A DNA stretch of 24,344 nucleotides from positions 1 through 24,344 of IMG/VR virus record IMGVR_UViG_3300020045_001486; one strand, given 5' to 3'. The notes beneath the pieces are model-generated. The model was given only the letters and a program-made list of their open reading frames with translations, did not search any database and was not told the DNA's origin. The stretch is from a virus. Lineage: Duplodnaviria; Caudoviricetes. Positions 1 to 22,280 of the stretch are shown here, in pieces (the first letter of the stretch is position 1; every line of letters begins with the position of its first letter). A program made the translations under genes and the position numbers.

Positions 1-1
1 G

Positions 2-652: not shown

Positions 653-654
653 TA

Positions 655-3354
655 ATGTATAAACCATACTACTTTCAAGAAGAAGCTATTTTTAGCATCT
701 TCGATTATTTTAGCTCAGGTAAACAAGGTAATCCAGTTATCTGTTGTCCAACAGGATGCCACGCCAAAGGAACTGAAATATTAATGTATGACGGCTCAAT
801 CAAAAAAGTCGAAGATATTATTATTGGCGATTTATTAATGGGACCGGATAGTAAATCAAGAAGAGTTTTAAATCTCGCCAGAGGTCGGCAAGAAATGAGA
901 AAAATAATACCAACTAAGGGTAAATCCTTTGTAGTGAATTTAGATCATAAAATATTTTCCAAAGTTATGTGTCAAAGTAATTCAAGAACATCTGAATCTT
1001 TTAAAGAACGAAACGAGGTTATAACAATACGAGAGTATGAAAACGGAACTAAATGGTATAAACATATTAGAAAATTACAAAGAACTAATGTAAATTTTAA
1101 AGAAAGAAATACAAAACTTGAATTTTGGCCTTGGTTTTTAGGTATATGTTTAGGTGATGGTTCTTTAAGTCATTCTTTCGGCATAACCACTGCTGACAAA
1201 GAGATAGTAGAAAGGATCACAGCCTATGCTTATAAAGCTGAGTGCCAAATACGAATAGCAGATAAGGGCGACAATAAAGCAAAAACTTACTTTATAACAG
1301 ATAAGGTATCAAATTGTGTCAATCCAAATAGGTTTGTAGGAGCTTTAACAAGATTAGGTTTATGGGGAACCAATTCTTCAAATAAATTTATACCTGATGA
1401 CTACAAACTAGGTAGTAAAGATACAAGATTAGGAATTTTAGCTGGATTACTCGATTCCGATGGTCATTTGGATAACTGTGGAGTTTTTGATTATATTTCC
1501 AAATCAAAACAATTGGCCGAAGACGTTGTTTTTATAGCTAGAAGTTTAGGTCTTGCTGCATATTTAAAAGAATGTGAAAAAACATGCACCAATAATGGAG
1601 TTAAAGGTAATTATTTTAGAGTGTGTATTTCTGGCGATTTATCTAAAATACCTTGTGTTATACCTAAAAAACAAGCTAGTATTAGGTTACAAAAGAAAAG
1701 TGTTTTGGTCACAGGGTTTAAAGTTGAAGTTCTTCCAGAAGATGATTTTTACGGATTTACTTTAACTGATGATCGTTTGTATTTAACATCTGATTTTATA
1801 ATTCATCACAATACAGGAAAAAGCCTTATTATAGCTGAGTTCATAAAGAGGGTTCTTCACAGTTGGCCTACTCAAAGAGTTATGATGTTGACCCATGTTT
1901 CGGAGTTAATCAAACAAAACTCTGAAAAGTTATTAACTCAGTGGCCTACAGCACCGCTCGGCATATATAGTGCTGGTTTAAATAGTCGTGAAAGTATCAT
2001 GCCTATTGTATTTGGCGGTATTCAATCAGTTGCAAAGACAATTAAGAAATCATTATCAAACGGTAACAACAAACCAGCTCATTTAAAACATTTCGGTTGG
2101 CGTGACTTGGTCTTGGTCGATGAAGCCCATCTCCTATCACCTAAAGAAGATACAATGTATCAATATGTTTTAGGTGAATTATTAAAGATTAATCCGTATT
2201 TAAAAGTGATTGGATTTACAGCTACACCATATCGTTTAAAGCAAGGAATGATAACAGACGATGGTTTATTTACAGACGTTTGTTATGACATAACAGGAAT
2301 AGACGCATTCAATCGACTTATTGCTGAAGGTTATATTTCACCACTCATTCCAAAGCGAACAGACATAACAATTGACGTTTCAAATATAGGTATAACCGGC
2401 GGCGATTTTAATAAAAAACAACTTGAAGCAGCGGTTGACAAAGACGAGGTTACTTATGCAGCGGTTAAAGAAATGGTGGAACAAGGTTTTGATAGACGTT
2501 CTTGGCTGATATTTGCATCTAGCGTATCGAATAGTGAACACATCGCGGCTATGCTGCAATCCTTCGGTATACATGCTGCTGCTACGCATTCAAAATTATC
2601 AGATGAAGATAATAACAAAAGAATTTCCGACTTTAAAAACGGATCTTTAAGAGCCCTTGTCAATAACAATAAATTAACCACCGGTTTTGATTGCCCACAG
2701 ATAGACATGATCGGAATGTTGAGGCCGACTTGCTCACCCGGTCTGTGGGTACAAATGCTCGGAAGGGGAACTAGACCTTGTGAAAATAAATCCAATTGCC
2801 TTGTACTTGATTTCGCCGGAAATACCAAAAGACTTGGCCCAATTAATGATCCAGTTAAGCCACGAAAAAAGGGAAAAGGAACTCCTGGTGATGCGCCAAT
2901 CCGAATTTGCGATAGCTGCGGAGTTTACAATCATGCTTCAGCAAGATTCTGTATCAACTGTGGAAAAGAGTTCTTGTTTGAAACGAAGTTATTTAAACAC
3001 GCAGGAACTGATCAGTTATTAAGATCGGACGCACCGATAGTTGAATACTTTGATGTTCAAAAAGTAATTTATAACTTACACGAAAAAAAGAACGCTGAAG
3101 GTACGTTACTTTCACCACCGATGATAAAAGTTAGTTACTTTTGCGGATTTCAGATGTATAATAAGTATGTATGTTTGGAACATCCTGGAGTGACTGGAAA
3201 GCAAGCAAGAGATTGGTGGCGGCAACATCATCACGAAGAACCACCACCAACAACACACGAAGCATTACAAAGAGTAAATGAATTGCGAATACCTAAACGT
3301 ATTCGTGTATGGGTCAATCGCAAATGGCCGGAAATCTTAAATATGGAGTATTAA
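655..3354 (+). CDS. Superfamily 2 DNA helicase (RadD/YejH/UvsW-like), intein-containing precursor of 899 aa (547 aa after splicing)
   Basis: Walker A PTG|TGKS is reconstituted after intein removal. Also DEAH (LVDEAH), motif III TAT (GFTATP), motif V (LTTGFDCP), motif VI (QMLGRGTR) and a C-terminal Zn ribbon CDSC-x10-CINC. Confidence 0.92.
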   Translation: MYKPYYFQEEAIFSIFDYFSSGKQGNPVICCPTGCHAKGTEILMYDGSIKKVEDIIIGDLLMGPDSKSRRVLNLARGRQEMRKIIPTKGKSFVVNLDHKIFSKVMCQSNSRTSESFKERNEVITIREYENGTKWYKHIRKLQRTNVNFKERNTKLEFWPWFLGICLGDGSLSHSFGITTADKEIVERITAYAYKAECQIRIADKGDNKAKTYFITDKVSNCVNPNRFVGALTRLGLWGTNSSNKFIPDDYKLGSKDTRLGILAGLLDSDGHLDNCGVFDYISKSKQLAEDVVFIARSLGLAAYLKECEKTCTNNGVKGNYFRVCISGDLSKIPCVIPKKQASIRLQKKSVLVTGFKVEVLPEDDFYGFTLTDDRLYLTSDFIIHHNTGKSLIIAEFIKRVLHSWPTQRVMMLTHVSELIKQNSEKLLTQWPTAPLGIYSAGLNSRESIMPIVFGGIQSVAKTIKKSLSNGNNKPAHLKHFGWRDLVLVDEAHLLSPKEDTMYQYVLGELLKINPYLKVIGFTATPYRLKQGMITDDGLFTDVCYDITGIDAFNRLIAEGYISPLIPKRTDITIDVSNIGITGGDFNKKQLEAAVDKDEVTYAAVKEMVEQGFDRRSWLIFASSVSNSEHIAAMLQSFGIHAAATHSKLSDEDNNKRISDFKNGSLRALVNNNKLTTGFDCPQIDMIGMLRPTCSPGLWVQMLGRGTRPCENKSNCLVLDFAGNTKRLGPINDPVKPRKKGKGTPGDAPIRICDSCGVYNHASARFCINCGKEFLFETKLFKHAGTDQLLRSDAPIVEYFDVQKVIYNLHEKKNAEGTLLSPPMIKVSYFCGFQMYNKYVCLEHPGVTGKQARDWWRQHHHEEPPPTTHEALQRVNELRIPKRIRVWVNRKWPEILNMEY
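757..1812 (+). mobile_element. Intein with LAGLIDADG homing endonuclease (352 aa) in the helicase Walker A motif
   Basis: Starts CHAKGTEILMYDG (block A), has block B VVNLDHKI, LAGLIDADG helices FLGICLGDG and LAGLLDSDG, and block F/G FYGFTL...IIHHN followed by Thr (+1). Confidence 0.93.
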
Positions 3355-3356
3355 AA

Positions 3357-3698
3357 ATGAGCGAAACCGATAACGATGATTGTTTAAAATGTGTTAAATG
3401 CGCTGAAGTTTGTCCTGACGAACCTCATGTATCAGCCAGAGGACTTGAATGGTTATCCTTTGCTGATTCGGTGATGGATCACGTTGAAAATTATACAGTT
3501 CCTCAATACGGTGATAAAGGTCAAGATAACGTATCTGAATGGTCTGCTGAAGAATGTTTTAAGCAGGTTGAAAAATATTTGAAACGTAGAAATTCAAATC
3601 AAAGACCTGGACAAAATAAGTTGGATATATTAAAGATGGCGCATTACCTTTGTTTAGCCGAATCAAAACTTGATGATAACCGACACGGTTTAGTTTAA
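3357..3698 (+). CDS. Small phage protein, DUF3310-like / nucleotide pyrophosphohydrolase-like helical protein
   Basis: The ATG at 3357, just after the helicase stop, is preferred to 3309. The pattern QYGD...KYxxR...G...DILKMAHY resembles the KYxxR..DLxKAxxY signature of DUF3310-type proteins. N-terminal CxxCxxCxxxC. Confidence 0.5.
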   Translation: MSETDNDDCLKCVKCAEVCPDEPHVSARGLEWLSFADSVMDHVENYTVPQYGDKGQDNVSEWSAEECFKQVEKYLKRRNSNQRPGQNKLDILKMAHYLCLAESKLDDNRHGLV

Positions 3699-3707
3699 GG
3701 GGAAGGA

Positions 3708-4769
3708 ATGGAAATTGAAAACGGAGTGGAATTACCAGTTGAAAAGAAGGTTAGAAAGCCAAGAGCAAGACGAGCTAAAAAAGGATTGAATCCTGCCGCT
3801 GGTTTGATATCAGCTTTGAAATTTATTCTTCCTGCTCAAAAGAAAGCTGGAACGGTCCAGCAGCAATATTGTTTTATCGGCAACGGCTGGCTGGTGGCAT
3901 CAAACGACACCTTAACCATCGCCACGCCGATTCAAGAGGATCTTTGTGCCTGCCCACACACTCACCTGTTACTTGAAGCCCTTTCCAATTGCACTACAGA
4001 GCTTCAAATAACCCAACTGAGCGAGTTTGTGCTGTCTGTTAAGTCTGACCCGTTCAGGGCGGAAATCCCCTGTGTTGCGGCAAATCAGCTTGTTCTCAGC
4101 GGCCCTGACGAACCTTTTGCATCCTGTGGGCAAAGTCTCAAGACTGCCTTGGAATCGGTCTATCACTTGGCTACTGATGGAGCGAGTGAAGCATTTTTGG
4201 CAGGTGTTTTGTTAAATGAAGTAACGGCAGTCAGCACAAACGGAAGCACTATTATTGAATATTGGCATGGTCAATATTCAAGCTTGCTTTCATATCTTAT
4301 TCCGAAAGTTGCTATTTCCGCTTTATCAAAATCAAATAAGGGTTTGATCGGTTGCGGATTAACCGATACTTCAATAACCTTTCATTTTGAAGACAGTTCG
4401 TTTATAAAATCTCAATTATTTAATGATAGGTTTCCAAGTTATTTACATTTATTCGAAAATGAATCAATAAATCCCTGGCCTGTTCCTGACGATTTCTTTA
4501 AGGCTTTGAAATCAATTGAACCCTTTACTACTGATGGAATTGTTCATTTTGTTGAAGGTGGGTTGGCGGCAAGTGAATCTGGAGAAACCTTTTACAAGAT
4601 CGAAGGTTTACCTTCAGGCTGGTCTTTTTTGATTAAACATCTGCTGTCAGTTGAACACGTTATGAAAACGGTTCATTTCGACAACGACTTAAACAAAATT
4701 ATTTTCTTTGGCAATAATGCTAGAGGAATTGTTTCAGCTATGGAAAGGCAAGAAGAAAGGAGGATATAA
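3708..4769 (+). CDS. DNA polymerase sliding clamp (Pol III beta-like)
   Basis: 353 aa with an RBS (GGGGAAGGA). Beta-clamp-like repeats 'LVASNDTLTI' and 'AVSTNG' (compare ATDG) and 'SQLFNDRFPSY' (compare RLIdG.FP.Y). Sits between helicase and polymerase, as in KL1/PA73-type replication modules. Confidence 0.7.
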   Translation: MEIENGVELPVEKKVRKPRARRAKKGLNPAAGLISALKFILPAQKKAGTVQQQYCFIGNGWLVASNDTLTIATPIQEDLCACPHTHLLLEALSNCTTELQITQLSEFVLSVKSDPFRAEIPCVAANQLVLSGPDEPFASCGQSLKTALESVYHLATDGASEAFLAGVLLNEVTAVSTNGSTIIEYWHGQYSSLLSYLIPKVAISALSKSNKGLIGCGLTDTSITFHFEDSSFIKSQLFNDRFPSYLHLFENESINPWPVPDDFFKALKSIEPFTTDGIVHFVEGGLAASESGETFYKIEGLPSGWSFLIKHLLSVEHVMKTVHFDNDLNKIIFFGNNARGIVSAMERQEERRI

Positions 4770-4771
4770 TA

Positions 4772-5011
4772 ATGATAATTTCAATTAAGAAAGGTCGATC
4801 TGATGTTTGGCCACCTTGGAATAGTCGAATCAGATTAAATGGAATAACAATTAATAATGTTATCTATGCAGACGATAGTAAAAAATTAATTGAAAGATAT
4901 GTTGTAGATTCCGAAGGTAAATACATTCTCAGTAAAATAAATGATCAGACTTTGACTGAAATAATTCACGGTGATGTTCAAATAATTCATGGTCTTGCTG
5001 ATAATGAATAA
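4772..5011 (+). CDS. Hypothetical protein (79 aa)
   Basis: Fills the gap between the clamp and polymerase genes with tight coupling and an AGGAGG RBS upstream. No recognisable motif. Confidence 0.6.
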   Translation: MIISIKKGRSDVWPPWNSRIRLNGITINNVIYADDSKKLIERYVVDSEGKYILSKINDQTLTEIIHGDVQIIHGLADNE

Positions 5012-6155
5012 ATCAATTGACTTCTATACCGACTCGGAACTGTTACAGGTTCCAGTCGGTACTGTTTTTGTATTCGATGTTGAATGTTACTGGAACTTCT
5101 TTTGTGTAGGTTTCAAAGATATTAGAAACGATAAGGTTGTGTTCTTTGAGCAATCGCCAGATTACAATTTAAATATTGAAAAGTTACGATGGATGCTGTG
5201 GCGTTTCTGTCTAGTAGGATTTAATTCAAGAAACTACGATATTCCTATAACATTACTTGCTTGTGAAGGTAAATCAGTTACTGAATTAAAAGAAATTACA
5301 AATGAAATTATTAAAAGCGAATTGAGAATTTATCAACTCGAAAAGAAATACAAATTAAATATTCCAAACTTAAATCACATTGACTTAATTGAAGTCTGTC
5401 CTTTAACAGCTTCTTTGAAAACTTACGCTGGCCGTCTGCATTGCCAGCGTATGCAAGATTTGCCTTATGATGAAGATTCACACTTGACACAAGAACAAGC
5501 TAAAGTCGTTAGAGAGTATAATATAAACGATCTTGATAATACCAAGTTAATTTTGTTAAATTTAAAAGATCAGCTTGGTTTGCGTGATCAAATGTCAGTT
5601 GAGTATAATCAAGATTTACGTTCAAAATCTGACGCACAAATAGCCGAAGCTGTTATTACAAAAGAAGTAGGTAGATTGACCGGTCATGCCCCAAAGAAAC
5701 CAATAATCAAAGAGGGAACAAGTTATAAATATAACATACCTAACTTTATTAATTATAATAATAGCATCTTGGTTAATATGTTGGATGTTATTAGAAATTC
5801 TAATTTTATTATTGGTAAAGACGGCTCTCCAAAACTACCTAAAGAAATCGAAGGACTTAAAATCAAAATAGGTAGTTCTGTTTATCGAATGGGGATAGGT
5901 GGGTTGCATAGTTCTGAAAAGAATATAGCTCATCTTGCCGATGAAAGTAACCTACTTATTGATCGAGATGTTGAATCATATTACCCGCGAATTATCATCA
6001 ATCAATGCCTTTTTCCTGCCCACATGGGCCTGGATTTCTTGTCTGTTTACGGTGATAATGGCCTGGTTGGAAAACGGGTCGGGGCCAAACGTCGAGGGAA
6101 GGAGATAAAAAAAGAAATTGAAAGATTGAAAAATCTCTTGAATGAACTTACCTAA
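5004..6155 (+). CDS. Family-B-like DNA polymerase, N-terminal part (3'-5' exonuclease, motif A, first fingers helix)
   Basis: ExoI FDVECY, ExoII GFNSRNYD, ExoIII YNINDL, GGLHS, and motif A DRDVESYYP. Ends RVGAKRRG plus a helical tail, before motif B. Start at ATG 5004 (overlapping the previous gene) is preferred to 4989. Confidence 0.88.
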   Translation: MNKSIDFYTDSELLQVPVGTVFVFDVECYWNFFCVGFKDIRNDKVVFFEQSPDYNLNIEKLRWMLWRFCLVGFNSRNYDIPITLLACEGKSVTELKEITNEIIKSELRIYQLEKKYKLNIPNLNHIDLIEVCPLTASLKTYAGRLHCQRMQDLPYDEDSHLTQEQAKVVREYNINDLDNTKLILLNLKDQLGLRDQMSVEYNQDLRSKSDAQIAEAVITKEVGRLTGHAPKKPIIKEGTSYKYNIPNFINYNNSILVNMLDVIRNSNFIIGKDGSPKLPKEIEGLKIKIGSSVYRMGIGGLHSSEKNIAHLADESNLLIDRDVESYYPRIIINQCLFPAHMGLDFLSVYGDNGLVGKRVGAKRRGKEIKKEIERLKNLLNELT

Positions 6156-6166
6156 TGTGCTATTTT
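6138..6166 (+). promoter_or_regulatory. Putative sigma70-type promoter for the endonuclease and the polymerase C-terminal gene
   Basis: TTGAAT (6138-6143), 17-nt spacer ending TGC, then TATTTT (6161-6166), i.e. an extended -10. The AT-rich context makes a chance match possible. Confidence 0.4.
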
Positions 6167-6190
6167 TATAAAAATTAAATTTTATAAAAA
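6163..6190 (+). repeat. Inverted repeat (11-bp stem, 6-nt loop) next to the endonuclease RBS
   Basis: TTTTTATAAAA-attaaa-TTTTATAAAAA, followed directly by GGTTCTT-ATG. Confidence 0.6.
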
Positions 6191-6197
6191 GGTTCTT

Positions 6198-6869
6198 ATG
6201 AAAAAATATCATCCTCGATTAAAAACAGTTCACGGTGTCAATGTTGTGAATCATCCTTTATATAACATTTGGACAAATATGCGTTATCGCTGTGAGGATG
6301 AAAATAATTCAGCTTATCATAACTATGGTGGTCGCGGTATAAAGGTTTGTGAAGAGTGGTCAAAATCCTTTGAATGTTTTGCTTTAGATATGGGGTTGCC
6401 GCCGACACCTGAACACACGTTAGACAGAAAAGATAATGATTTAGGATATAATAAAGAAAACTGTAGATGGGCTACAAGAACCGAACAATGTTTAAATAGA
6501 AGAACATTTAAAAATAATACAACCGGACAAACTGGAATTGTTAAAAAACAAAACGGTAAATTTATAGCTCGTTACGATAAAAATGGGAAAAGATATAATC
6601 TCGGATCGTTTAATACAATTGAAGAAGCCGTTTCCTATAGAACTAAGTTTTTAAAATTATTTGAAAGTAACAAAGAAGAAGCTCTTAAAATGACAGAACG
6701 TAGAGCTAGACTTGATTCACAAACAGGAATAAAAGGAATAACTAAAAATTCAGACGGATATTTAGTAAGAGTAACTTTACTAAATAAAACTAGAAAATAT
6801 TTAGGTTTTAGTAAAACATTAGAAGGCGCTATTGAAAAATTAAACGCCTTTGATGGTGAATATAAATGA
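6198..6869 (+). mobile_element. Free-standing HNH-family homing endonuclease with two C-terminal AP2-like DNA-binding domains
   Basis: YNIWxxMRxRC...YGGRGIKVCEEW...F...DMG...TLDRKDNDLGYNKENCRWATxxEQxxN (HNH-like), then two TG..GI...(F/Y)xxR...R.xLG.(F)xTxExA repeats. Its stop overlaps the ATG of the polymerase C-terminal ORF. Confidence 0.85.
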
Positions 6870-7717
6870 ATAAAATTGAAATAGAAAATAGGATTAAAGA
6901 GCTTGAAAAAGAACTCAAACAAGTTTCTGTAACAACTGATTCAATTAAAATTTCAGTTAACGGCTCCTTCGGCAAGCTAGGGAGCAAATATTCAGCCTTG
7001 TACGCCCCTGATTTGATGCTCCAAGTCACCATCACCGGCCAGCTTGCCCTGCTCATGCTGATAGAGCGTATCGAGTCTGTGGGCATCCCTGTAGTATCGG
7101 CCAATACCGATGGTATTGTAATGAAATGCCCGAAGGTTCGATACGACGAATTAAATTTAATTATCGAACAATGGGAAAATGATACGAACTTTAAAACAGA
7201 AGAAACACAATACAAAGCCGTTTATTCAAGAGACATTAATAATTACATTGCGGTTAAAACTGATGGCAAATGTAAGACAAAAGGCGCGTACAATAACCCT
7301 TGGAGTGATCATAAATCAGCAATTTTCAGATTCCATAAGAACCCACAAACGACAATATGTATCGAAGCTGTTGTTGAACTTATATCTAAAGGAAATGAAA
7401 TTGAAAAAACAATTAGCAATTGCAATGAAATTTCCAAATTTGTTGCAGTCAGAAATGTTAAAGGCGGTGCTGTTAAATCAGGAAAATATCTAGGTAAGGT
7501 TGTTCGTTGGTATTATGCAAAAGGCGAACAAGGGTACATCGAATATAAAGTCAATGGTAACAAAGTGCCAAAAAGTGACGGCGGGAAGCCTTGTATGGGC
7601 TTACCCGCCGAATTTCCTAACGATATTGATTATGATTGGTATATCAAAGAAGCTGAAGGAATCCTTTTTGATATAGGCTATTACAAAAAAGCCACTCCTG
7701 GTAAACTGTTCTTTTAA
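6866..7717 (+). CDS. Family-B-like DNA polymerase, C-terminal part (motif B, motif C, thumb)
   Basis: Motif B KISVNGSFGK, TITGQ, motif C SANTDG, RDINNY, KTKG and a C-terminal DIDYDWYI. Confidence 0.88.
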   Translation: MNKIEIENRIKELEKELKQVSVTTDSIKISVNGSFGKLGSKYSALYAPDLMLQVTITGQLALLMLIERIESVGIPVVSANTDGIVMKCPKVRYDELNLIIEQWENDTNFKTEETQYKAVYSRDINNYIAVKTDGKCKTKGAYNNPWSDHKSAIFRFHKNPQTTICIEAVVELISKGNEIEKTISNCNEISKFVAVRNVKGGAVKSGKYLGKVVRWYYAKGEQGYIEYKVNGNKVPKSDGGKPCMGLPAEFPNDIDYDWYIKEAEGILFDIGYYKKATPGKLFF

Positions 7718-10700
7718 TTAATAGGTGCCGAACTTTTATATGGATGGTCAACCGGAAGATTGGCCTCTAGGCCCCATTTCCAGGCGAGATACCCTTCGAT
7801 CTTCTGGCGGTCCTCGGTCGTGGGGGTGCCCGGAACGCACAAAATCTCGGCAAACTCTGCGACGAGTTCGTAATTTAAATACCCTCCGATGAGTATATTG
7901 GAGAATGCTGTAAAATTGCAATTTATCACTTCAACAATAGATACTCTATTGTTCAATGATAGATACAGGCTGTCCCTAGTACTCCAAGTGACCGATTCGC
8001 CGTCTACTAGGTAACTTGGACTACCAAAATTCCCGTTCACGGGATAGTTTGTATTACCAGACATCCCAGCAAGTGCATAAGTAACACTTCCAGATGCCGC
8101 CGTGAACGTTGCATAATTTGCATCGCTTGTCTTAAATACATAAAAGAGTGTCTGGACAGTCAGCCCGGGAGATGAGATGAGCAGACTCTTTGATGTTGTA
8201 TCCAGCGATACAGAGTTCTTTCCATCGATGCCTCCTGTATTAATAACAGGTTGGGCTGTATCCAAACTCTGCCGGGCATACCTAGCGTTCCCAGACTTAT
8301 CACGCCACTCGCTCACCCCTGTATCAATGGTGATGGTTGAAGCATCATCCGCATCCAGCCAGAGTGAGGTTGTAATCTCCACAGGAGTCCATAGATATTC
8401 ACCGCTTTCCAATTCACAAGTAATTGTTTCAGCCACTGCTGAATATTTTGAATTAGAAATTATTTGTTGATCTGCAATAACTTCAAGTATTCCAACTCTA
8501 CCTGTAATATCTAAAGATACAGTACTTGATGTAGTTGTTATTGTAGTGTATTCACCTGCTCCAACACGCCACCTTATTCTTGTTTGTGTTCCAGGTTCCC
8601 TAGATGATCCGATTTCATCATAAACTTGAAGAGAAAGATTATTTCTATCCCTGTTTCTCCAGCCCACAGTAACTGAAGTACCTCCTGCTATCGGTGAAGG
8701 ATTTCTTGACCCGTTAATTGTCAGATAATTTGTGGGCAAAGGCAATCCGGCGCGACCACTTTGAGTTGCTGTAATCAACGTCGCTTCATCAAGAGTTAAT
8801 TTATTACTATAAGTCGTGTCTAACAACTTAATATACTTTAATTCAGAATTTGGAATCAAAGTATTAATTAACCCGTTAATACCTTCAATGAACCAGGCTC
8901 TTGCGTTAGCTAAATGTGAATAGGAAGTAGTATCATAAATTGACCTGTAAACATTATTGAATGTTACTGATCCGTCACCGTTATTACTGTACCCAACATA
9001 AATAAATAATTCAGAACCAATTAATATTAACGCCTGACCTCTTCTAGCTTGGTCTAATGTTGTAAATTGTTTTAAATTCGATATATCCTCATTAGACATA
9101 TCATAAATAATTAAATCTCCGCTAGTATCGTGTTTTGTTGAAAAGGCGACTGTATTCGGGTAATCGTTTAATAACTTACCGGTAGAATTATAAATAACAG
9201 ATTCGTTACCTAAAACAAGATTTGATACAAAGTTATCCGAACTAAGCATAACGTCGTAAAGAAAAGAAGCTCCTGTTGGTTTTTTAGCTACTGAATATAA
9301 TCTACCGGAATTATCAAAAGAGGATACTGTTTCAGTGCTGGAGTTCGAACTTAAAAATAAAGGTGGTGTAAATATAGAAGTATAAACAACCGGAGCAGGT
9401 TCACTGTTTATCGGAACAAAGTGTGAAACGTCAGGCTGTGCAAAAATAGGTGTTGACGTTGAAAACTTATCTTGAATACAGGTTATTGTTATTTCGTTGT
9501 TAGCTAACTCACCTAAGCTAATTTTACTAATACGCATAACCATATTGGTTAAACTAAAAGGACTCCAATTCAAAATAAAACAACCGCCTGGACGTAAGGA
9601 TTGGGCCTTTCTATTACAAATTATATCACATTTATATAAAGGAACACTTACAAAACTAAGTTGCTTTGAAGCCATTATTAAAGCAGTCGATGAGGTCTTA
9701 CAACCAACAGCACTTATTTCAGTTGACTTAACTCTATCTTGAAAATTGATATTTGCAAAATCTTGTGCTACAGCTACACTATCATCATAGTCGTCATCTC
9801 TATTTGAAAAAGTAACACGAACTTGATTAAATGTATCATTCCAAGTACTTTTTGCAAAATTAGTTAAAGACTTAATTGACGATTCATCTAAAGTAATTAA
9901 GTCTTCAATATCGTAATCTTCTCGAATAAGTTTACATACTATTTTTGATGTAGCTGGATCTTGATACATCAAACCGTCGCATTGAGTCATTACCTCATTA
10001 ATCAAATCCTCACCAGTTATTGAAGATTGGATTAAAATTGACATCTGTATATTTTCATCGTATAAAATTTGCGCTGATGAAATAAAACTAGGCAAGTCCA
10101 ACAAATCAGGAGAATTTCCAAAACAACCAAAGTTTCTTGTTAAAGCGTCATATGCTATTTCTATAGGATTCAAATCAACGCCATTTGGCATTATTGAATA
10201 AGTAGAATCTAATCCGCTTGTTAGCCTGCTAATTTCAAAAGATATTGAAGGTAAAGTTGCTGCTGTACCTATATAAAAATTTTTAAAAACTATTCTACAA
10301 ATACCATTATATGATGGAATATTTTCATCAACCTTAATAGCTAAATAGGGATCTCTTGCCGTATCAAAAGATCCTGTATAAAATGTAGCGGTTCCTTTAA
10401 GACCGCCGCCACTTTTATCACCACCAAATAAGTTTTCTTGATCTATAGTTATGTCACCATCCGCTGATTTACTTCCTTCCCATATAATGTCCGTATCTGA
10501 AAATATACGTTTAAGAACAACGCCCGGCCCTAAGCATAAAGCTAAATCAAAACCCAAATAGTATTTATGTCCTGTTACATAAGATTTGTCAGAATGGAAT
10601 AATCCACCGTCAATTGTTTCGGTAATAGCTACTGTTGAAAAATCACCGTACCATAAAACAACCGGCGATTTTTGTCGTTCCGTACCGAACAATAGACTAA

Positions 10701-11659: not shown

Positions 11660-13350
11660 GCTTCAGCAGTCCTTACACTAAATTCAATAGTAGTGTCGTT
11701 ATGATAATGTTTTAAAGTTACCGTATCACTATTTAATCTAACAGGTAACAAAAAGGAAACTCTTTTTATCAGTGCCCACAGAGGATCTACAGGCAAAGCT
11801 GGTTCGAACTCGATCAGGGACGTATCATCAACGGCGGATGCCTCTAAAACGCTCACCCTGTGAATACCACCTTCCGTTTCAAACTCAAGGTATCTATGTG
11901 TGGGCAAGGTGAAAGTTTTTCTTGCGTACTCAACGCTACTGCAAATAAAAGATGAGGTTGAAACTATTTCGATAAAGTTAAGATCCTCTCTATAAGTAGG
12001 AACCCAAAACTTTTTACATTGCCCTCTACAATGAGCAAAAAATAGTTTCCAGTAATCGAGTTTTTCATAATTAGAAACACGATTAAATTTAAATGATTTG
12101 TCTGTTCCTGTTCTACTATAGTCCCATCTTGAAATCAAACTTTCTAAACCAGTTTGATTATCTACAGATTTTAAACCAGCAAACAAAACGTCTTTAAGTA
12201 AATCATCTGCTAAACTTCTATCGTCAAGAACAATGGTATCCAAAAATGTATCGAAAGTGAAAGAAGATCCCGCCCTAGCTAAAGATTCACGTTGTCTTAA
12301 AAGTTTACAATTCAAAGTAGTTTTACCAACTTCGTTTGTTGCAAATCTTTCAAGATAACTGTTATCTTCTATTGAAACAGCAGAACCAGGAATAACAAAC
12401 GAACCTAATGGTATATCAAAAATTAAAGGTATTGTAGTACAACCGAAACTTTCAATAGTTTCTATTTTAATAACTTCTGATCCAGTTGGAGTTTTAATTA
12501 AAATATATTCCAATTCTCTAACATCAATTTTCGAATTATCAAAATATATGTTTAATTCACCCACACTACTCTCGGAAGTAACTCTTGTAGCGTATTGAAA
12601 TTCAGGAACCCATAAAAATCCTTTGCATATCAAAAGGTTCGTGTAAAATGATCGTAGTTCTGTTTGATTTTCAAATATAACATTGATATTTTGTTCAATT
12701 CTAGGAACTTCACCTAAAATGGAAATTCTTTGTTCACTACCATCATCAGAATCAATAATATCAGTTAACCATTCCCAAGTTTCTATAACAGGAACTTCAG
12801 GAACAACATCAAACTTTATTATTCTATCACCGGTTAAAATTAATGGTAATGGATCGGGATAATCTGAAAAATCAAATAAAATTTCAGAATAAATTACCGG
12901 AGTTCCTATGTAATCTACAGTTAGGTCATAAGTCAATTCCTGCAAAGGTGAAAATTCATAAGGAGTTGATTGACCCTCGATGATTATTCCAGACTGATCG
13001 GATATTAATATTTCATAAAGGTTTACTGGATTATAAGGATAAGCATTCCAAATAAAGAATTGTCGTTCTTGAGTTGTTGCAATCGTACCTAAATTTATTC
13101 CAAGTGGAGTGCAATGAATACGGAGATAATAATCTTGAAAAAATGATGGAAATAAATTACCTTTTATTTGCCATCTGTTAGATTCATGTTCTCTCCAATC
13201 AGAATAAGAACCATTTAATTGAACTATTTCGGTTAAAGACCAAGCTGCTTTTTCATAAGAGGCTTCTGTATTTTCATTCAAATCTTCAGAACAAAAATCA
13301 ACTATTTCAAAAGTAATATCAGTTGTTAAATAACCGGATATGGCTACCAT
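11656..13350 (-). CDS. Virion tail-tip structural protein (564 aa; YuA/D3112-like module)
   Basis: DYYxRIH...IWNAY, ETWEWLTD..DGSEQR, GQxKxFWVP and RLxSDxV motifs typical of this distal-tail-like protein. Gene order agrees. Confidence 0.7.
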   Translation of the reverse strand: MVAISGYLTTDITFEIVDFCSEDLNENTEASYEKAAWSLTEIVQLNGSYSDWREHESNRWQIKGNLFPSFFQDYYLRIHCTPLGINLGTIATTQERQFFIWNAYPYNPVNLYEILISDQSGIIIEGQSTPYEFSPLQELTYDLTVDYIGTPVIYSEILFDFSDYPDPLPLILTGDRIIKFDVVPEVPVIETWEWLTDIIDSDDGSEQRISILGEVPRIEQNINVIFENQTELRSFYTNLLICKGFLWVPEFQYATRVTSESSVGELNIYFDNSKIDVRELEYILIKTPTGSEVIKIETIESFGCTTIPLIFDIPLGSFVIPGSAVSIEDNSYLERFATNEVGKTTLNCKLLRQRESLARAGSSFTFDTFLDTIVLDDRSLADDLLKDVLFAGLKSVDNQTGLESLISRWDYSRTGTDKSFKFNRVSNYEKLDYWKLFFAHCRGQCKKFWVPTYREDLNFIEIVSTSSFICSSVEYARKTFTLPTHRYLEFETEGGIHRVSVLEASAVDDTSLIEFEPALPVDPLWALIKRVSFLLPVRLNSDTVTLKHYHNDTTIEFSVRTAEA

Positions 13351-14292: not shown

Positions 14293-14293
14293 A

Positions 14294-15271
14294 TTATTTC
14301 ATCTCCATTGCAATATAATTACGCCATGTTGTTCTATATACATCTTGACAAATAATAAAAGCTCTTCCCGAAACCAAACGTATTGCAGTAACTGCTTCTA
14401 AAACACTCATTCCAGTTTGATCGACTACGGTAGAGCCGTCTATTTGCAAAACATTTTCAACACCATTATTAAAACCGGAACAAAAAAAGATACTTTCGAA
14501 CTCACCCCATACATTAGATTGATTTATAGAAGTATCTAAATCTTGTAGTATTACAGGTTCTATTTGATAATATTTGTAAGTTTCCTCTAATAATCCAGCG
14601 GGAACTAATGTGTTTGAACCTGCTACACCAGCTAAAGCATTAGTGTTACTATTTTTATTTGAAAATGGATAGTTGTATGTTTTGCTCCATACACCGTCAG
14701 GTTTACGAACCCATAACATACATGAAGCTGAATAAGCAGACCCACCCCATGGGAATACTTGAGCAGTGTCACTGAATCGCTTTAGTTCAGGCCCATCAAA
14801 CATACCAGCGACGTATAGAGGTGAAGGAAATTCCCCAGGTCTACCATAAGGAAAGAATTTACCCGCTCCGAAATGTTCGTAAACAGGAGTTCCGACTTTC
14901 AAACAACCTGTTATTTGCTGTGCGTTAGCTTGGATAAAATACGTTATGGCATTATTGTGGGCAGGTACGCCACTATATTTTCCATTTGGTTGAGTTTCAA
15001 AAGTGTTAATTGAAACATATCCGGTAAAAACACCAACTGAAATATTATAATAATCAGCGGCAGCATTTTGATAAGTTTTGAAACCTATAAAAATTTCTTC
15101 TGTTCCGGTTAAACCTTCACCTTGCAAAATAAGTTCATGGTTATCGGTTGAAGTGTCGTAACGTAAAGTCACCCAATTGTTATCTTCAAGTAAACTTTTG
15201 ATAACAACCAAAAGTTGGTAATGAGTATCTAAGTCATCACCTTTAACTACTGTTCCTATTGAATATGACAT
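14294..15271 (-). CDS. Virion structural protein (325 aa), first of the pair after the tape measure gene
   Basis: ELILQGxGLTGTEEIFIG, GKFFPYxRPxEFPxPL, SGFNNxVEN and QDVYRT motifs. Directly follows the tape measure gene. Confidence 0.7.
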   Translation of the reverse strand: MSYSIGTVVKGDDLDTHYQLLVVIKSLLEDNNWVTLRYDTSTDNHELILQGEGLTGTEEIFIGFKTYQNAAADYYNISVGVFTGYVSINTFETQPNGKYSGVPAHNNAITYFIQANAQQITGCLKVGTPVYEHFGAGKFFPYGRPGEFPSPLYVAGMFDGPELKRFSDTAQVFPWGGSAYSASCMLWVRKPDGVWSKTYNYPFSNKNSNTNALAGVAGSNTLVPAGLLEETYKYYQIEPVILQDLDTSINQSNVWGEFESIFFCSGFNNGVENVLQIDGSTVVDQTGMSVLEAVTAIRLVSGRAFIICQDVYRTTWRNYIAMEMK

Positions 15272-18165
15272 TATTTAACTCCAACTATTTTGGCTACTGT
15301 TTGACGATTCTTTTGTAAAGTTTCAATTATAAATGCTCTACCTTCGGAAGATTTCAAAGCACTCATAGCGGCTTCTTTCGATTGTACCACAACAGCAGTA
15401 AAAGGCACGTTCACATTCACAGGCTGGTCAACTTTTGTCGCACCCTGTGCATTTCCTGAACCGTTCTGACCACTCGCTGCCTTGCCCACAGATGCGCCAT
15501 TTCGAGCCACCTGCGCCGCCCCGGATCGAAGCCTATCCAGGTTTGCCACCCCGATCTTTTGAGTACTGGCAGCGTCCATGACGTATTCGCGTTTATGCAC
15601 CACACCAGCGACTTCGTTCAGCGACCCTCTACCAGTCCACCCACCTTCCATAAATCCAGCCACGCCCCGGATAGCGGCCACGTTAGCCATACCAGCGGCC
15701 ACCACAGCAGCGGCCAGAGCAGGCCCAAGATAAGGCCCACCTTCAGCATAAGCCTTGGTAGCAGCGACGTAAGTATTGATTAGAGCTTGTGCTATTGCCG
15801 CTGTCTTTCCTATATCAGCTATCTTTGCATTACTGGAGTTCTGCAAAGATGCAAAGTTTCCAAAGAAGTCACTAGCGTAATCCAGCTTTAACTTATTTTC
15901 GTTAGCTATTAACTTTTCACGATATGCAGAATACGTTTTTTCACTAACAAGATCACTAGCTCTCATTTCCTCAAGAGTTTTATAATATTCTTGATATCTA
16001 TCCATCTGAGCACCTAAACCAATAGGATCGTCGGATATTGAAGCAAGTTCTTGACGAAGTGAAAGTACCTTTCTCAAATTTTCAACTTCACTTTCTGGAA
16101 GAATATTCTTTTGTTTAAGTTGTTCGTCTTTTAATTGAGATATTTCAGTTTCAACACCACGCTGATTTGTAGGCAAGGCTCCAAGTCTTAATTGTTCTTT
16201 AAGATTCTTGTTATACTCATACATCGAGTTTGTAGCAGCTTTATACTTTTCATCAGCATTTTGAATAACAGCGTTCAACTTTTCTTGGCTTATCAAGTTT
16301 TTCTTTAAAAGCTCATCACCAGCCTTTAAAGTAGCGAAGTATATACGACTTGGTCCTTCAATATCATCATAAAGATTATCAAATATTTGTTGAGCAAGAG
16401 TAGCTTCTTGAATTGCTTTTATTTTATTCCAAATGCTTTTAGTTTCTTCATCAGTAAGTTTTATTTTCTTACCGATCATTTTTTCCATAATAGAATCAAA
16501 TTTTGCTTGTGCTTCTCTTTCTGGACGCAAAGCAAACATACGATTTAATTCGTTATCAAGTTCGGCATTAATTTTAGCTAAAGTTAAAGCTCTACGTTCA
16601 GCAGCTTTGTCAGATTTATTAGCCCTATCTTCTAGTATAGATTTAGCTGCATTTTTAAGTTTATCTTTTTCAAAATTTATAGCATTCTTTTTAACGTCTT
16701 TAAAGAAATCGCTAGTAGCTGATTTACCAGTGGCCCAACCTTTTTTTAAGTCGGCCCCCATATTATCACCTATTTTAGAAAAGGAACCTTTATACTCATT
16801 TTCCAATTTAGGTAATTGCTTTTTAGTGAACTCGGGTATTATATCAAATCCAAATAAACCTTTAGGCAAACTGTTTAAAGAATGAATAAAAGCATTAACC
16901 AAATCAGTCGATTTATCAGTTATTCCTTGCAAAGCAGTTATTGCTATATTTGCTCCATTTACAAAAAACTCACCAAACAAATTAGGCAAGGCTTTCCAAA
17001 TATTTATAACAGCATTAAAAGCAGCATAGTTTAATGCAAATATGCCGTTACAAACAGTACCGACAACACCAAGTAATCTTAAAAATCTATCTTCAATCCA
17101 ATCAAAAAATTTAGTAGCTATATCTTTTGTGTCAAATGCTTTATCGAGATCGTCACTTATTGTTTTAAAAATACCTTTAAATATACTTCCGTAACCAACT
17201 TCAAATTCACCCTTAAAGTTTTTAATTTCTTTTTTGGTCATTCCTAATTCAGTTAGGAACTTTTTTAATTCTTTACTGGTTAAATTCAAATCAGCTACAA
17301 ATACTTTTAATCCTGAATCTTTATTTATTTCTTTTTTCAATAAAGCAAAAGCACCTACAGCGGCACCGAGAACGGCAATCAAAGGCAAAAATGGAACGAG
17401 CATCATTGCAGCGGCTCTAGCCATTGCACCCATACTAACCCCAGCAGCGGAAGCTATACCACCAATTTGAGAACCTTGTTGAATGAATACTGTCAAAGGC
17501 TTTTGACCTGAAGCAAGCGAAACAAAAATATCATTTAATTGATACCCAAGATTAACTAAATGTTGTCTTGAAAGTTGAGTTGTGTTATTGGTTTTTAATA
17601 ATGATTGTTGCCATTGTGTATTCTGAACTCTTGCGTTTTGTAAACTAACTTGAGCTTGGTCAATAGCTCTAGCATGTACTCTTTGAGAAATAACACCTTG
17701 TTCAAGTAACCTATTTGTTTCTCTAATTGATTGAGCATATTCTAAATAAGCTCTACGCAACGGATTTATTTTGTTTAAGATTCGATCTTTTGCAGCAGCG
17801 TCGTTTGCTTCAGCTACAGCATTACCTTGAAGTATTTTTTGCTGCGCTTCCAAGGCTCTATTTTCAGAATTAATTTGTGAAACATAATCACCTGTTTTAA
17901 GATTAGATTGTCTAGTTTCAATATTTATGACGGCTCGATAATCACCAGCTTTTAATTTAGCTTTTATTTTATCAATTTCATTTGTTACTTTTTTAAACTC
18001 GCTTTGAAGTCTTGTTACAGAACTTCCGCCAAGTTTTGACATTTCTTTAGTCAATATCGCTATAGCAGAATGTGCTTCTTTCGCATCGAAAGCAATGGAC
18101 TTTAATTTAGTTGAAATTGAAGAATCAACTTTGTCTTGTACTACAATCTCAATATTATTATCCAT
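15271..18165 (-). CDS. Tail tape measure protein (964 aa)
   Basis: Long Ala/Lys-rich helical protein with the lambda-H-like motif QLNDIFVSLASGQKPLTVFIQQGSQI and a C-terminal GFxxGGWTG...AGVVHxxEYV. Lies downstream of the chaperones. Confidence 0.92.
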   Translation of the reverse strand: MDNNIEIVVQDKVDSSISTKLKSIAFDAKEAHSAIAILTKEMSKLGGSSVTRLQSEFKKVTNEIDKIKAKLKAGDYRAVINIETRQSNLKTGDYVSQINSENRALEAQQKILQGNAVAEANDAAAKDRILNKINPLRRAYLEYAQSIRETNRLLEQGVISQRVHARAIDQAQVSLQNARVQNTQWQQSLLKTNNTTQLSRQHLVNLGYQLNDIFVSLASGQKPLTVFIQQGSQIGGIASAAGVSMGAMARAAAMMLVPFLPLIAVLGAAVGAFALLKKEINKDSGLKVFVADLNLTSKELKKFLTELGMTKKEIKNFKGEFEVGYGSIFKGIFKTISDDLDKAFDTKDIATKFFDWIEDRFLRLLGVVGTVCNGIFALNYAAFNAVINIWKALPNLFGEFFVNGANIAITALQGITDKSTDLVNAFIHSLNSLPKGLFGFDIIPEFTKKQLPKLENEYKGSFSKIGDNMGADLKKGWATGKSATSDFFKDVKKNAINFEKDKLKNAAKSILEDRANKSDKAAERRALTLAKINAELDNELNRMFALRPEREAQAKFDSIMEKMIGKKIKLTDEETKSIWNKIKAIQEATLAQQIFDNLYDDIEGPSRIYFATLKAGDELLKKNLISQEKLNAVIQNADEKYKAATNSMYEYNKNLKEQLRLGALPTNQRGVETEISQLKDEQLKQKNILPESEVENLRKVLSLRQELASISDDPIGLGAQMDRYQEYYKTLEEMRASDLVSEKTYSAYREKLIANENKLKLDYASDFFGNFASLQNSSNAKIADIGKTAAIAQALINTYVAATKAYAEGGPYLGPALAAAVVAAGMANVAAIRGVAGFMEGGWTGRGSLNEVAGVVHKREYVMDAASTQKIGVANLDRLRSGAAQVARNGASVGKAASGQNGSGNAQGATKVDQPVNVNVPFTAVVVQSKEAAMSALKSSEGRAFIIETLQKNRQTVAKIVGVK

Positions 18166-18167
18166 TT

Positions 18168-18590
18168 TTATTTCCTCAACTTAAACTTTGAAGCTATGTT
18201 TCGACCTACTAAAACAGCCCTTTCAACAAAACCAGATTGCGGATGCGACCATTCCAACTGTGGGACATAAGGTTGATTGTTACGGATGTAGATTTTTTGT
18301 CCTGGCTTTTTACGGCCCAGAACCGTTTTTGACCTGCCCACAGTAACCCCGGCTGAGAGGCTTTGTGTAGATCCTTTCTCGCCGGGGAAATGAGGTTCAA
18401 TTTTGTCCATGGATGGATTGTCTAAAGTCACAATCCAGTTTGAAAGCGCCATCGAGGTATCGACAGGCGTATTGTAGGCAAGTTGTTCAACAACAGCGTT
18501 TGCCACTTTTACAGCATGATCGGAAGCATCTTTGTCGATAGCATCTGCTTTCTTTTCAAGAAACTTGGCTAAATCCAAAAGAGTTTTCAT
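18168..18590 (-). CDS. HK97 gp10-like tail completion protein
   Basis: TPVDTSxAxSNW ... IYIRNNxPY..xLE ... GFVE signature. Confidence 0.8.
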   Translation of the reverse strand: MKTLLDLAKFLEKKADAIDKDASDHAVKVANAVVEQLAYNTPVDTSMALSNWIVTLDNPSMDKIEPHFPGEKGSTQSLSAGVTVGRSKTVLGRKKPGQKIYIRNNQPYVPQLEWSHPQSGFVERAVLVGRNIASKFKLRK

Positions 18591-19329: not shown

Positions 19330-19351
19330 TTGTGTTACCCCTGATTAAATT

Positions 19352-19383
19352 AAAAAAGGGACTGAAGTTATTCCAGTCCCTTT
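19352..19383 (-). terminator. Rho-independent terminator after the major tail gene
   Basis: The - strand reads AAAGGGACTGGAATAACTTCAGTCCCTTTTTT: a GGGACTG/CAGTCCC stem followed by U6. Confidence 0.8.
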
Positions 19384-19384
19384 A

Positions 19385-19413
19385 AGATTACATTAAAAAC
19401 AGCCTTGTTGCAA
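19385..19413 (-). promoter_or_regulatory. Possible sigma70-type promoter
   Basis: On the - strand, TTGCAA (19413-19408), 17 nt, then TAATCT (19390-19385), between the major tail stop and the terminator. Confidence 0.3.
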
Positions 19414-19417
19414 GATT

Positions 19418-20950
19418 TTACTGCGGCATTGCTACTGTGGGCAGGTAATCAAATTTGATGTGCATCATGGTGTAACCTGCTGCATTCTCAGCACCGGAAG
19501 ACTCAAGTGGAACGGTAATTGGATTGTCTTTTTCAACATTCAATCGACCGCCACCAAGGGAAAGTAAAGGAATGTCGTAAATAAAACCAGCGTTTGAAGC
19601 GCAAATAATCGTCGAAATACCAACATCGGAGTTTTGACGAACAGCCTGAACAGCCGAAACAGTTGTGAAATAAGCAGTAATGGAACCGCCGATGTCAAAG
19701 TTACCGGCAGAAGTATCGAATGCTCCAAGTACACCAACGGCTTTATTTGGAGTCACATTGTTATTAATAGTAATTGTCGCTTCGGAAATGTATCCAAACA
19801 ATACTGTTGGGGTTGCGTCAGTCGGATCAAGCAACGACATTTTAATTCGGTAAATGTCAGATGAAGTATTGAAAGCATCTTCACCCAAAGCCGAAATACG
19901 AGTACCATCTTTAATCTCGTCATCAGTATCGCCGGAACGATGAGTGTTATCACAAGCAACAAAAGTCAAATCAGCATTCAGCTTGTCAGCTTGAGGAACA
20001 TTCAACGTAAACTCATTCGCAACAGCGCCTTCAAGGTACTCAGCCTGAACTTCGGTTTCGGAAACACCATAACCAAGTTGACGTTCAACATTGTAAGATT
20101 TACGTTTGATCAAAGCTGAAGTGTTTTCGTTTTTGAGAACACTTCCGAAAAAGATACGAATCGTTTTTCCAGTTCCTGTTTCAGTAACGCTTGCAAAAGT
20201 AGTATCGTCAAAAACAATAGCTTTTGTAGCAATAGTTTTGATACGAGCGAAGCCGACATTATTTGCAAACGTAGTTCCCGTAGTATCGCCACCAATAAAA
20301 ATCCACTCACCGACATTCAAACCAAGAGTGGTGAAATCAGCAGTGGTACAGGTCAACGAAGGGATGTTACCGGTAACGGAAACATTCACATCTGCACTTC
20401 CGAATTGAAACCCTACGGCGGTCAATTTTGCCCCTGCTGCGGGAGTTTCGTTTACCAGAGCATCGGATACCACCACAGTGCTTGCGGTGGCAGACACGAC
20501 CGTTTTCAGGCCATTGTTAGCAGCAACGGAAAACCCTTCACCCTTGACCAGAAGCCCTGCCTTGTTGAACCCAACCAGACCAGAGGTAGCTGCATAAGTA
20601 TCGTCAGCGGCAGTTACACCAGTCAAGGCAACAGCAGCGGAGTTCATCGGCGCAGTCGTTACTTTTTCACGAACATCGGCAAAAAAGAATCCTTGCAGCA
20701 ATCGAGTCAGGTTATTTTGAGTAACATCAATATTGAAACCACCGCTTGCATCAAGATCGGTAATCGTACCTTTCTTGTTTTGCCGTGACGGATCAATGGG
20801 TGAACGAGCCATTTTAGACAATTCGCCGCCGAAATCGCTGTAGCTATTCGGTTCAAGACCGTACCAAACAGGAGTGGTCGGAAGCGTTTTCAAACTCTCC
20901 TCTTCAGCAAACGCCAGCCCGGTAATGTTACTATCAATTTTGTTAGCCAT
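19418..20950 (-). CDS. Major tail tube protein (510 aa)
   Basis: MANKIDSNxTGLxxAEE...LEPNSYSDFGG...RQxKKG..TDLDASGG..D...LLQGFFFA, as recalled for YuA/KL1-like major tail proteins. Strong RBS TAAGGAG and a downstream terminator. Confidence 0.9.
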   Translation of the reverse strand: MANKIDSNITGLAFAEEESLKTLPTTPVWYGLEPNSYSDFGGELSKMARSPIDPSRQNKKGTITDLDASGGFNIDVTQNNLTRLLQGFFFADVREKVTTAPMNSAAVALTGVTAADDTYAATSGLVGFNKAGLLVKGEGFSVAANNGLKTVVSATASTVVVSDALVNETPAAGAKLTAVGFQFGSADVNVSVTGNIPSLTCTTADFTTLGLNVGEWIFIGGDTTGTTFANNVGFARIKTIATKAIVFDDTTFASVTETGTGKTIRIFFGSVLKNENTSALIKRKSYNVERQLGYGVSETEVQAEYLEGAVANEFTLNVPQADKLNADLTFVACDNTHRSGDTDDEIKDGTRISALGEDAFNTSSDIYRIKMSLLDPTDATPTVLFGYISEATITINNNVTPNKAVGVLGAFDTSAGNFDIGGSITAYFTTVSAVQAVRQNSDVGISTIICASNAGFIYDIPLLSLGGGRLNVEKDNPITVPLESSGAENAAGYTMMHIKFDYLPTVAMPQ

Positions 20951-20962
20951 TCTTTTTTCTCC

Positions 20963-21409: not shown

Positions 21410-21768
21410 TTAATAAACTCAATTGTATATAGTATCTTTTGACCATTTGGTGATAATAAGTTAATGTCACTTATTCTTAATTCTTCACCATCTCTTAAAA
21501 CAACATCTTGAACAGATGGGGTGAATGAAACATCGCCCATTAAACCGTAAACATTACCTGATACAACATCCGATCCTTTAATGTATCTTATCCAAGAATC
21601 GGTTGACGGCAAGAAGCAAATGTACACATCGTTCGAAACTGGATCTGTAGCAACTTGATTCCAAGGTTCGGTTACTGAAGAATCTTTTTCTGTTTGTTTC
21701 CATTGAACAAGTTGCCCGTTCTTTTGAATCAAACGCTGTGCTGTTGCTATTTGTCTATCGAATCTCAT
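21406..21768 (-). CDS. Head closure / head-tail joining protein
   Basis: A.RLI.KNG...PW...P...D......I.....P.G..ILY pattern. Lies between the adaptor and terminator genes. Confidence 0.65.
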   Translation of the reverse strand: MRFDRQIATAQRLIQKNGQLVQWKQTEKDSSVTEPWNQVATDPVSNDVYICFLPSTDSWIRYIKGSDVVSGNVYGLMGDVSFTPSVQDVVLRDGEELRISDINLLSPNGQKILYTIEFIK

Positions 21769-22280
21769 ACCCGTATAGTCCTAATTGCAAATGAAGATAA
21801 ACCTTGAATAAATAAAGGTTCAAGGAAAGCATCGACTCCGGTAAATGTATTTTCAATGCCCACAGATACAGGATCGGCGTATTTAGTCTTGATCGGGCCA
21901 ACAACTTCCTCAACAACATAATCTTGCGGCGAGAAGTTAGGCAACAATTTCAAACCATCATTTACTGCCAAACCAAGCATCAGTTGAGCAATTTTCAACT
22001 GCTTTGGAATGGAGTTTGACGCAAGCTCGACCTCGTAAATGTATACACCCGTTCGAGGCCATTGTAAAGCCTGGTCGGTATTTGTGGGCAAACCTTTATA
22101 TTTTTCAGCTTTACTTTCAAGGTAATCAGTTGCTTGAATAAGCATTGCCGCCAAAGTATCGTCAACAGAAGATAAAGCCACACCACGATTTAAAGCAAAC
22201 GCTCGAAATTCAGCTATTGTATTATATGAATTTGCATTAGGAACATTAGTTCCATTCTCAACCGTTATTGTAATTGGCAT
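21765..22280 (-). CDS. Head-tail adaptor (DnaT-like domain family)
   Basis: VENGTxVxxANSY...A.DYLE...YKG....QxLxWPR...IPxxLKxAQ...VGPIxxxY signature. Confidence 0.8.
   Translation of the reverse strand: MPITITVENGTNVPNANSYNTIAEFRAFALNRGVALSSVDDTLAAMLIQATDYLESKAEKYKGLPTNTDQALQWPRTGVYIYEVELASNSIPKQLKIAQLMLGLAVNDGLKLLPNFSPQDYVVEEVVGPIKTKYADPVSVGIENTFTGVDAFLEPLFIQGLSSFAIRTIRV

Follow-up and report, generated by a model that had tools for sequence, protein, structure and literature searches.

In the viral record IMGVR_UViG_3300020045_001486 (Duplodnaviria; Caudoviricetes), of which positions 1–24,344 were analysed (hereafter the window), the octamer TGTGGGCA recurs on both strands, inside genes. 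Comparison of sequences indicates that this word is probably the recognition and start site of the phage's own NrS-1-type primase, and that its copies would form a ladder of priming sites for the lagging strand. PA73 gp13–gp30 (Pseudomonas phage, Septimatrevirus) match the window in gene content and order, and on that basis the window is a portion of a PA73/Septimatrevirus-like siphophage.

An earlier sequence-only reading of this DNA had listed 14 exact copies of the octamer, seven on each strand, and all are found at their positions (Table 1), as are the near matches it gave at 2744, 8661 and 18473. Dinucleotide shuffles give an expectation of 0.46 copies (largest 2 in 100) against the 14 observed, and the enrichment also survives a codon-preserving null, in which shuffling synonymous codons within genes leaves 0.74 copies (largest 5, n = 1000). 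Among all 8-mers of the window the word, ranked as its reverse complement TGCCCACA, comes first. As that reading had also said, all copies lie within genes and all three reading frames are represented; 6 copies are sense and 8 antisense, and the constraint acts on the DNA. It had further remarked on the absence of exact copies from the intein, the HNH gene and the accessory block, an absence that is not significant, since at the density of the core these regions should hold about 1.1 and 1.3 copies. Eleven of the 19 window sites (exact and variant) occur in no aligned relative, and only the site at 3951 is widely retained: selection preserves the word and its spacing, not the positions.

The trait common to the family is an even spacing of the sites on each strand independently, not their pairing. 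In the window, the coefficient of variation of same-strand gaps is 0.37, against 0.82 expected (p 0.003), with a copy every 1–4 kb on each strand; of the 37 genomes tested, 31 space their sites more regularly along a strand than chance would. The pooled same-strand gaps (n = 1100) have a median of 2375 base pairs (bp) and a 5th percentile of 950 bp. Same-strand pairs closer than 500 bp number 12, where about 203 are expected, and three of 400 same-strand neighbours lie within 300 bp of each other, while opposite-strand distances are distributed nearly flat. As a control, other enriched 8-mers were considered, and under-dispersion was seen in 2 of 111.

I counted words in 64 sequences, comprising the window, PA73, NrS-1, 24 named phages and 37 IMG/VR records (numbered with a G below). 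The named phages were drawn from across the primase and polymerase match lists, some sequences are partial or lack their last few kb, and the octamer for each genome was chosen from its own table of top words. A word with a TGTGG core is present in 41 of the 64, as a TGTGG-N-Y-W octamer among the top words in 37 and as a shorter core in four; of the rest, one has TGTTGGGC and 22 are without motif. The core words are TGTGGGCA, TGTGGTCA and TGTGGTTA; a genome has 12–50 of these sites, set at even distances within its genes, and their bias with respect to transcription is slight (583 sense sites, 500 antisense). Phages using TGTGGGCA infect seven genera (Pseudomonas, Rhodobacter, Paracoccus, Sphingomonas, Acinetobacter, Erwinia and Achromobacter), and TGTGGTCA or TGTGGTTA is found chiefly in Queuovirinae-like phages. 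Three phages of a single host species, P. aeruginosa (PA73, PAJD-1 and PBPA162), have three different words, so that the protein reading them should be the phage's own. The sequence-only reading had proposed a cis signal bound by a phage or host protein acting on two opposed sites; a signal in the DNA and a phage reader for it are supported, but a need for two opposed sites does not hold as a general rule. A scan of motif-free genomes for any evenly spaced word, covering 27 of the 64 sequences, gave nothing above noise. The genome with TGTTGGGC, G021 (L165–L168), carries 44 evenly spaced copies together with a phrog_1829 primase.

The words follow the replication module and, wherever the relevant region is covered, occur together with an NrS-1-type primase domain. 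A profile search found the NrS-1-type primase domain in 37 of the 41 TGTGG-core sequences, the other four being partial contigs without that region, and found it absent from 16 of the 22 motif-free sequences. PA73 gp36 matches the solved NrS-1 primase chains (E 4e-26) as well as the Pfam NrS-1 helix-bundle domain (PF22763). The published priming sites of NrS-1 are TTTGGTTA and, more efficiently, GTGG, and synthesis begins at the first upstream base (PMC8718748). TGTGGTTA is one change from TTTGGTTA, and the TGTGG core of the 41 sequences contains GTGG. The largest flank bias is likewise on the 5′ side, with A at −2 at 0.52 against 0.34 (0.41 against 0.22 for other TGTGG words). At −1, as was noticed post hoc, C stands before 8 of the 14 octamers of the window and, in G018, before 36 of 41, but before none of 100 in six close relatives. 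In the 37 motif-positive genomes, the dinucleotide immediately 5′ of the octamer has a bias that differs by lineage: AT in PA73-like phages, AA in Loki and PSTCR4, and YC in the window and G018.

Other members of the replication module can be replaced or go without a match. The motif is retained without a match to Cas4 (shaaii_LB5), to the clamp (G002), to SSB (PBPA162) or to the C-terminus of the PA73 primase (BcepGomr), and a family A polymerase stands in for family B in six motif-bearing genomes (Pfam check on two). In Birtae, Bhz54, R3, G022, 2.117.O and S0112 this family A polymerase adjoins the same clamp gene, in the place of family B; the polymerase has been swapped repeatedly within one module. 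G027 has an SF2 helicase, Cas4 and polymerase B together with a different Prim-Pol domain, and no motif.

The likely primase gene of the window phage lies outside the window, on a separate sequence, L316, whose 3′ end has 121 bases identical to window positions 1–121; the Cas4 frame continues across this overlap. L316 holds, in the order of PA73, genes for SSB, Sak4, MazG and a helix-turn-helix protein and, truncated after residue 205, a primase that is 62% identical to PA73 gp36 and 38% identical to the NrS-1 polymerase (E 1e-30), with the DxD and His catalytic motifs of an AEP domain homologous to that of NrS-1. On L316 the gene is cut short of the helix-bundle domain, and 30 loose bases from close strains extend the frame with the motif that starts this domain, as translated by eye. 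The same 121 bases occur at both ends of L316 (1–121 and 4405–4525), the first copy cutting the primase gene, and are probably an assembly joint; a small circular form may be an alternative. Strains 90–95% identical to the window exist, and close strains (runs X1 and X2) cover the window and the primase at similar depth and continue beyond the joint. From the overlap and gene order, L316 is likely the upstream part of the window phage. At L316 1275–1380 the X1 and X2 strains carry different letters, which by eye resemble a tRNA gene.

Several observations weigh against the assignment of the word to the primase. Primase and window are tied together just by gene order and the overlap of 121 bases. 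The primase domain occurs without a ladder in six sequences (NrS-1, CL2, DS11, PEi21, Sasha and G035), and G012 and G017, with related primases of the family found in G021, likewise have no ladder. In 6 of the 37 genomes the evenness of the spacing fails p < 0.05, and the genomes are related, so that counts are not independent. On trees, the G/T word class needs two changes on the primase (a quick tree), and one on the polymerase, Cas4, clamp or terminase; as a means of following co-evolution of word and primase, the trees were uninformative. I also looked for a residue determining specificity, and since the primase columns that differ between word classes follow lineage, none is claimed. The NrS-1 primase is loose in vitro, where GTG is reported to be enough, and this fits poorly with a rigid octamer. 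Finally, the primase domain is accompanied by a close SF2 helicase as the only other component present in all complete positives, and G027 alone separates the two.

This last point also speaks for another explanation, in which a different enzyme of the module, the SF2 helicase or the exonuclease/Sak4 recombination system, would use the octamer as a polar, Chi-like or loading signal. A polar signal would also yield strand-wise even spacing, and other genes of the module fit the trees equally well. However, G027 has SF2 and Cas4 without motif, shaaii_LB5 has the motif without a Cas4 match, the motif-bearing G015, G020 and G025 have faint Sak4 matches, and the resemblance to the measured sites of NrS-1 would have to be a coincidence. 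SF2 helicases of this type are not known to read octamers, and I regard this explanation as improbable. Host proteins fare worse. Chi sites and DnaA boxes are polar 8–9-mers that are host-specific, whereas the window word tracks phage lineage across hosts; binding by DnaA or use as host Chi, which the sequence-only reading had entertained, conflicts with three words in phages of one host species and one word in phages of seven genera. The DnaA-box likeness it reported, TTGCCCACA matching TTATCCACA at 7 of 9 positions, is correct for copies with a leading T, just 6 of the 14, but not as a DnaA box: the first box position is free in 1174 pooled sites, and there are two mismatches to TT(A/T)TNCACA. 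Use in packaging, injection or condensation, also suggested there, is contradicted by G004, whose virion genes resemble those of PA73 (75% for the tail tube, 69% for the capsid) but which has neither replication module nor motif, and by the different terminase, capsid and tail tube families of the positives. A role of these kinds, through host protein or virion, is scarcely credible. In G004 (L115–L117) no phage replication genes were detected, and a ParB-methyltransferase fusion is present. A further possibility is that virion DNA is nicked in a programmed way, or has its bases modified, at the sites. Some phages do have nicks tied to a motif, such as WACTRTGAC, which has 13 sites in Rembedalsseter (PMC11780129), and unprocessed DNA primers could leave nicks beside priming sites. 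The known nick motifs are of another sequence and lie on one strand, but the window sites tile both (seven and seven), and this explanation is very unlikely.

In the mechanism that I propose for a primase-read word, the advancing fork would expose single-stranded DNA, on which the helix-bundle domain of the primase, by analogy with NrS-1, would bind the next octamer. The primer would begin at the bases immediately 5′ of the octamer, and polymerase and clamp would extend it as far as the previous fragment, so that site spacing would set the length of Okazaki fragments. Because an 8-base word is too rare by chance (fewer than one per 24 kb), selection must supply the sites, and silent codon choice would place one per approximately 2–3 kb on both strands; both would be tiled because forks would run both ways. 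Close copies on the same strand would be redundant and decay, which would give even spacing without selection against copies. The close convergent pairs of the window would then reflect a lineage-specific phase relation of two ladders, and not the basic unit.

If this mechanism is correct, the starts and lengths of Okazaki fragments would be encoded in the genome, and not left to chance, in a large group of lytic phages, the Septimatrevirus-like phages and Queuovirinae, which include therapy candidates. What sets fragment length, a long-standing question, would become testable through silent recoding. Sequence alone would reveal which sites dozens of uncharacterised primases use in vivo, and among these are natural variants with different 8-base sites. 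Recoding of these phages, or insertion of DNA into them, may violate a hidden spacing rule.

Phage T7 has a DnaG-type primase, which makes RNA primers at a short site that is common by chance. About 26 strong genomic sites of the form 5′-(G/T)2GTC-3′ have been proposed to support T7 replication, and flanks matter; the abstract of that report does not speak of a rare word placed at even intervals along both strands, as in the window (PMC12839067). NrS-1 resembles the motif-bearing phages in its homologous AEP catalytic domain and helix-bundle domain (the latter seen in PA73 gp36), and in that TGTGGTTA, TGTGGTCA and TGTGGGCA differ from TTTGGTTA at one to three positions and contain GTGG. It differs in having one exact site, no genome-wide ladder, another C-terminal helicase and no separate polymerase, whereas the phages of the motif family have a separate polymerase and clamp beside the primase. 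The Pseudomonas phage nick motif WACTRTGAC is, like the window word, a dispersed motif of 8–9 bases common to a phage family, but its nicks have been measured, and it is not linked to this primase (PMC11780129). In the accessible part of the KL1 paper, the word appears solely within a table of ribosome-binding sites (PMC3483164). In the open-licence literature I found no published description of an evenly spaced, genome-wide ladder of a rare octamer. Primase recognition sites are already known as such, and the ladder, as deduced from sequence, is apparently new.

The sequence-only reading had emphasised inverted pairs of the octamer, and in the window this pairing does exceed chance. Under a circular-shift null that keeps the spacing of each strand, exact sites converge at 250 bp or less in three cases, where 0.5 would be expected (p 0.007); with TGTGGGTA and TGTGGGCT included the number is five against 0.75 (p 0.004), and there is no pair of the opposite polarity. 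L316 contributes another pair, at 33 bp. The claim that the pair 6017/7078 has been split by the endonuclease is supported by G018, which holds both sites at orthologous codons, 231 bp apart, and the sites at 14956, 15483 and 19436 are indeed without close partner. G018, which is not closely related to the window phage, has nine convergent pairs against 2.6 expected (p 0.0025). As a rule of the family, pairing was rejected: in the remaining 35 genomes convergent pairs number 22 and divergent ones 56, where 46 of each are expected. Among the IMG/VR matches listed, the two polarities are about equal (at least 210 and at least 250), with no convergent excess. In the TGTGGTYA group, divergent neighbours at 100–300 bp are somewhat over-represented and convergent ones under-represented.

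The convergent pairs could nonetheless be functional units here, with primase sites facing each other across 30–270 bp as small bidirectional start or restart origins, since synthesis begun at either site would run on through the opposite one. Such a role would supplement priming by the primase, not replace it. It accords with the excess of pairs in the window and G018, with the pair in the polymerase gene that is common to the window and the distant G018, and with NrS-1, in which the stretch that follows the primase gene, with its iterons and AT-rich DNA, has the same polarity and opposed sites flank a putative origin: a plus/minus site pair has been proposed as the NrS-1 origin (PMC7102993). 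By my count this NrS-1 region holds a single exact TTTGGTTA, with copies that differ at one base on the opposite strand. At L205 17050–17440 (NrS-1), AAGTGTAAC/GTTACACTT iteron-like repeats surround the AT-rich stretch and overlap the primase sites, and this region is likely the replication origin. On the other hand, the window had been chosen for its pairing, 74 tests were made, and G001 departs from chance just as strongly towards the other polarity (p 0.002). No more than one pair is present in any of the closest relatives (PA73, G007, G008 and RcTitan), and other relatives sharing the 5′ flank have no excess. The window spacers, in which iterons were not searched for separately, are 45–60% AT against 63% overall, and are not AT-rich. 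I consider this supplementary role rather unlikely. Three further ideas were discarded, namely a tie between C at −1 and pairing (6 against 10 IMG/VR matches, with three further C-type relatives lacking an excess), pairs as AT-rich unwinding elements (not seen), and one pair beside the primase gene in every relative (not seen). A still bolder combination, in which the rare octamer would fix all Okazaki starts on either strand, the two bases 5′ of it would set a lineage-specific first dinucleotide, and the two ladders of the window phage and G018 would have locked into facing pairs that serve, some twelve in number and spread over coding DNA, as bidirectional origins or restart points where NrS-1 has one paired origin, is distinctly unlikely.

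Table 1. Octamer sites, variants and gene regions in the window, and the partial primase gene on L316.
Feature	Position	Strand	Remarks
TGTGGGCA (plus strand reads TGCCCACA)	2692..2699	-	SF2 helicase gene; left half of 52-bp convergent pair
Variant TGTGGGTA	2744..2751	+	Pairs with 2692; variant also frequent in G002, G025, G032
Exact site	3951..3958	-	Clamp gene; sole site widely retained at same codons (7/34 aligned relatives)
Exact site	4125..4132	+	Clamp gene; 174 bp from 3951
Exact site	6017..6024	-	Family B polymerase, N-terminal half; also in G018
Exact site	7078..7085	+	Polymerase C-terminal half; also in G018, 231 bp from 6017 orthologue
Variant TGTGGGCT	8661..8668	-	70 bp from 8731; variant frequent in PA73, AH03, RcTitan, G022
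Exact site	8731..8738	+	Large tail gene
Variant TGTGGGTA	10828..10835	-	Unpaired; fills gap in minus-strand ladder; absent from the sequence-only list
Exact site	11773..11780	-	Tail assembly gene; 126 bp from 11899
Exact site	11899..11906	+	Tail assembly gene
Exact site, unpaired	14956..14963	+	Structural gene; common to PA73
Exact site, unpaired	15483..15490	-	Tape measure gene; common to G018 and G034
TGTAGGCA, possible weak variant	16168..16175	+	No enrichment in relatives
Exact site	18335..18342	-	Neck gene
TGTAGGCA, possible weak variant	18473..18480	+	138 bp from 18335; no enrichment in relatives
Exact site, unpaired	19436..19443	+	Tail tube gene end
Exact site	21857..21864	-	Head-tail adaptor gene; 226 bp from 22083
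Exact site	22083..22090	+	Head-tail adaptor gene
Replication arm	1..7717	+	Cas4-domain exonuclease, intein-bearing SF2 helicase, clamp-like processivity factor, family B polymerase (two open reading frames around HNH gene)
Primase (partial)	L316 742..122	-	Outside window, upstream of it

Tail genes come after the family B polymerase in the window. The HNH gene at 6156–6870 splits this polymerase into two open reading frames, whose facing ends are coiled-coil-like by eye, and the arrangement may be an intron or a split enzyme; a strain in run X1 skips approximately 6046–6957 of the window, in the HNH/polymerase region. The intein of the SF2 helicase is of the LAGLIDADG type (735–1828), and one X1 strain is without it. 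At the right end, positions 22280–24344 hold three open reading frames with no PHROG or Pfam match and a higher GC content (47–48%), and are likely a recent accessory block.

Over-represented words of other kinds were also encountered among the IMG/VR records. In G028 (L179–L181), CCTGGTTA occurs 30 times, 25 on one strand and 5 on the other, alongside a phrog_1156 primase, and its spacing is not even. Other strongly over-represented words, AAGGTAAG, AAGTATAG, AAGTTAAG and CTAGACCA, were seen in G011, G016, G019, G037 and G030, and are possibly phage promoters or operators.

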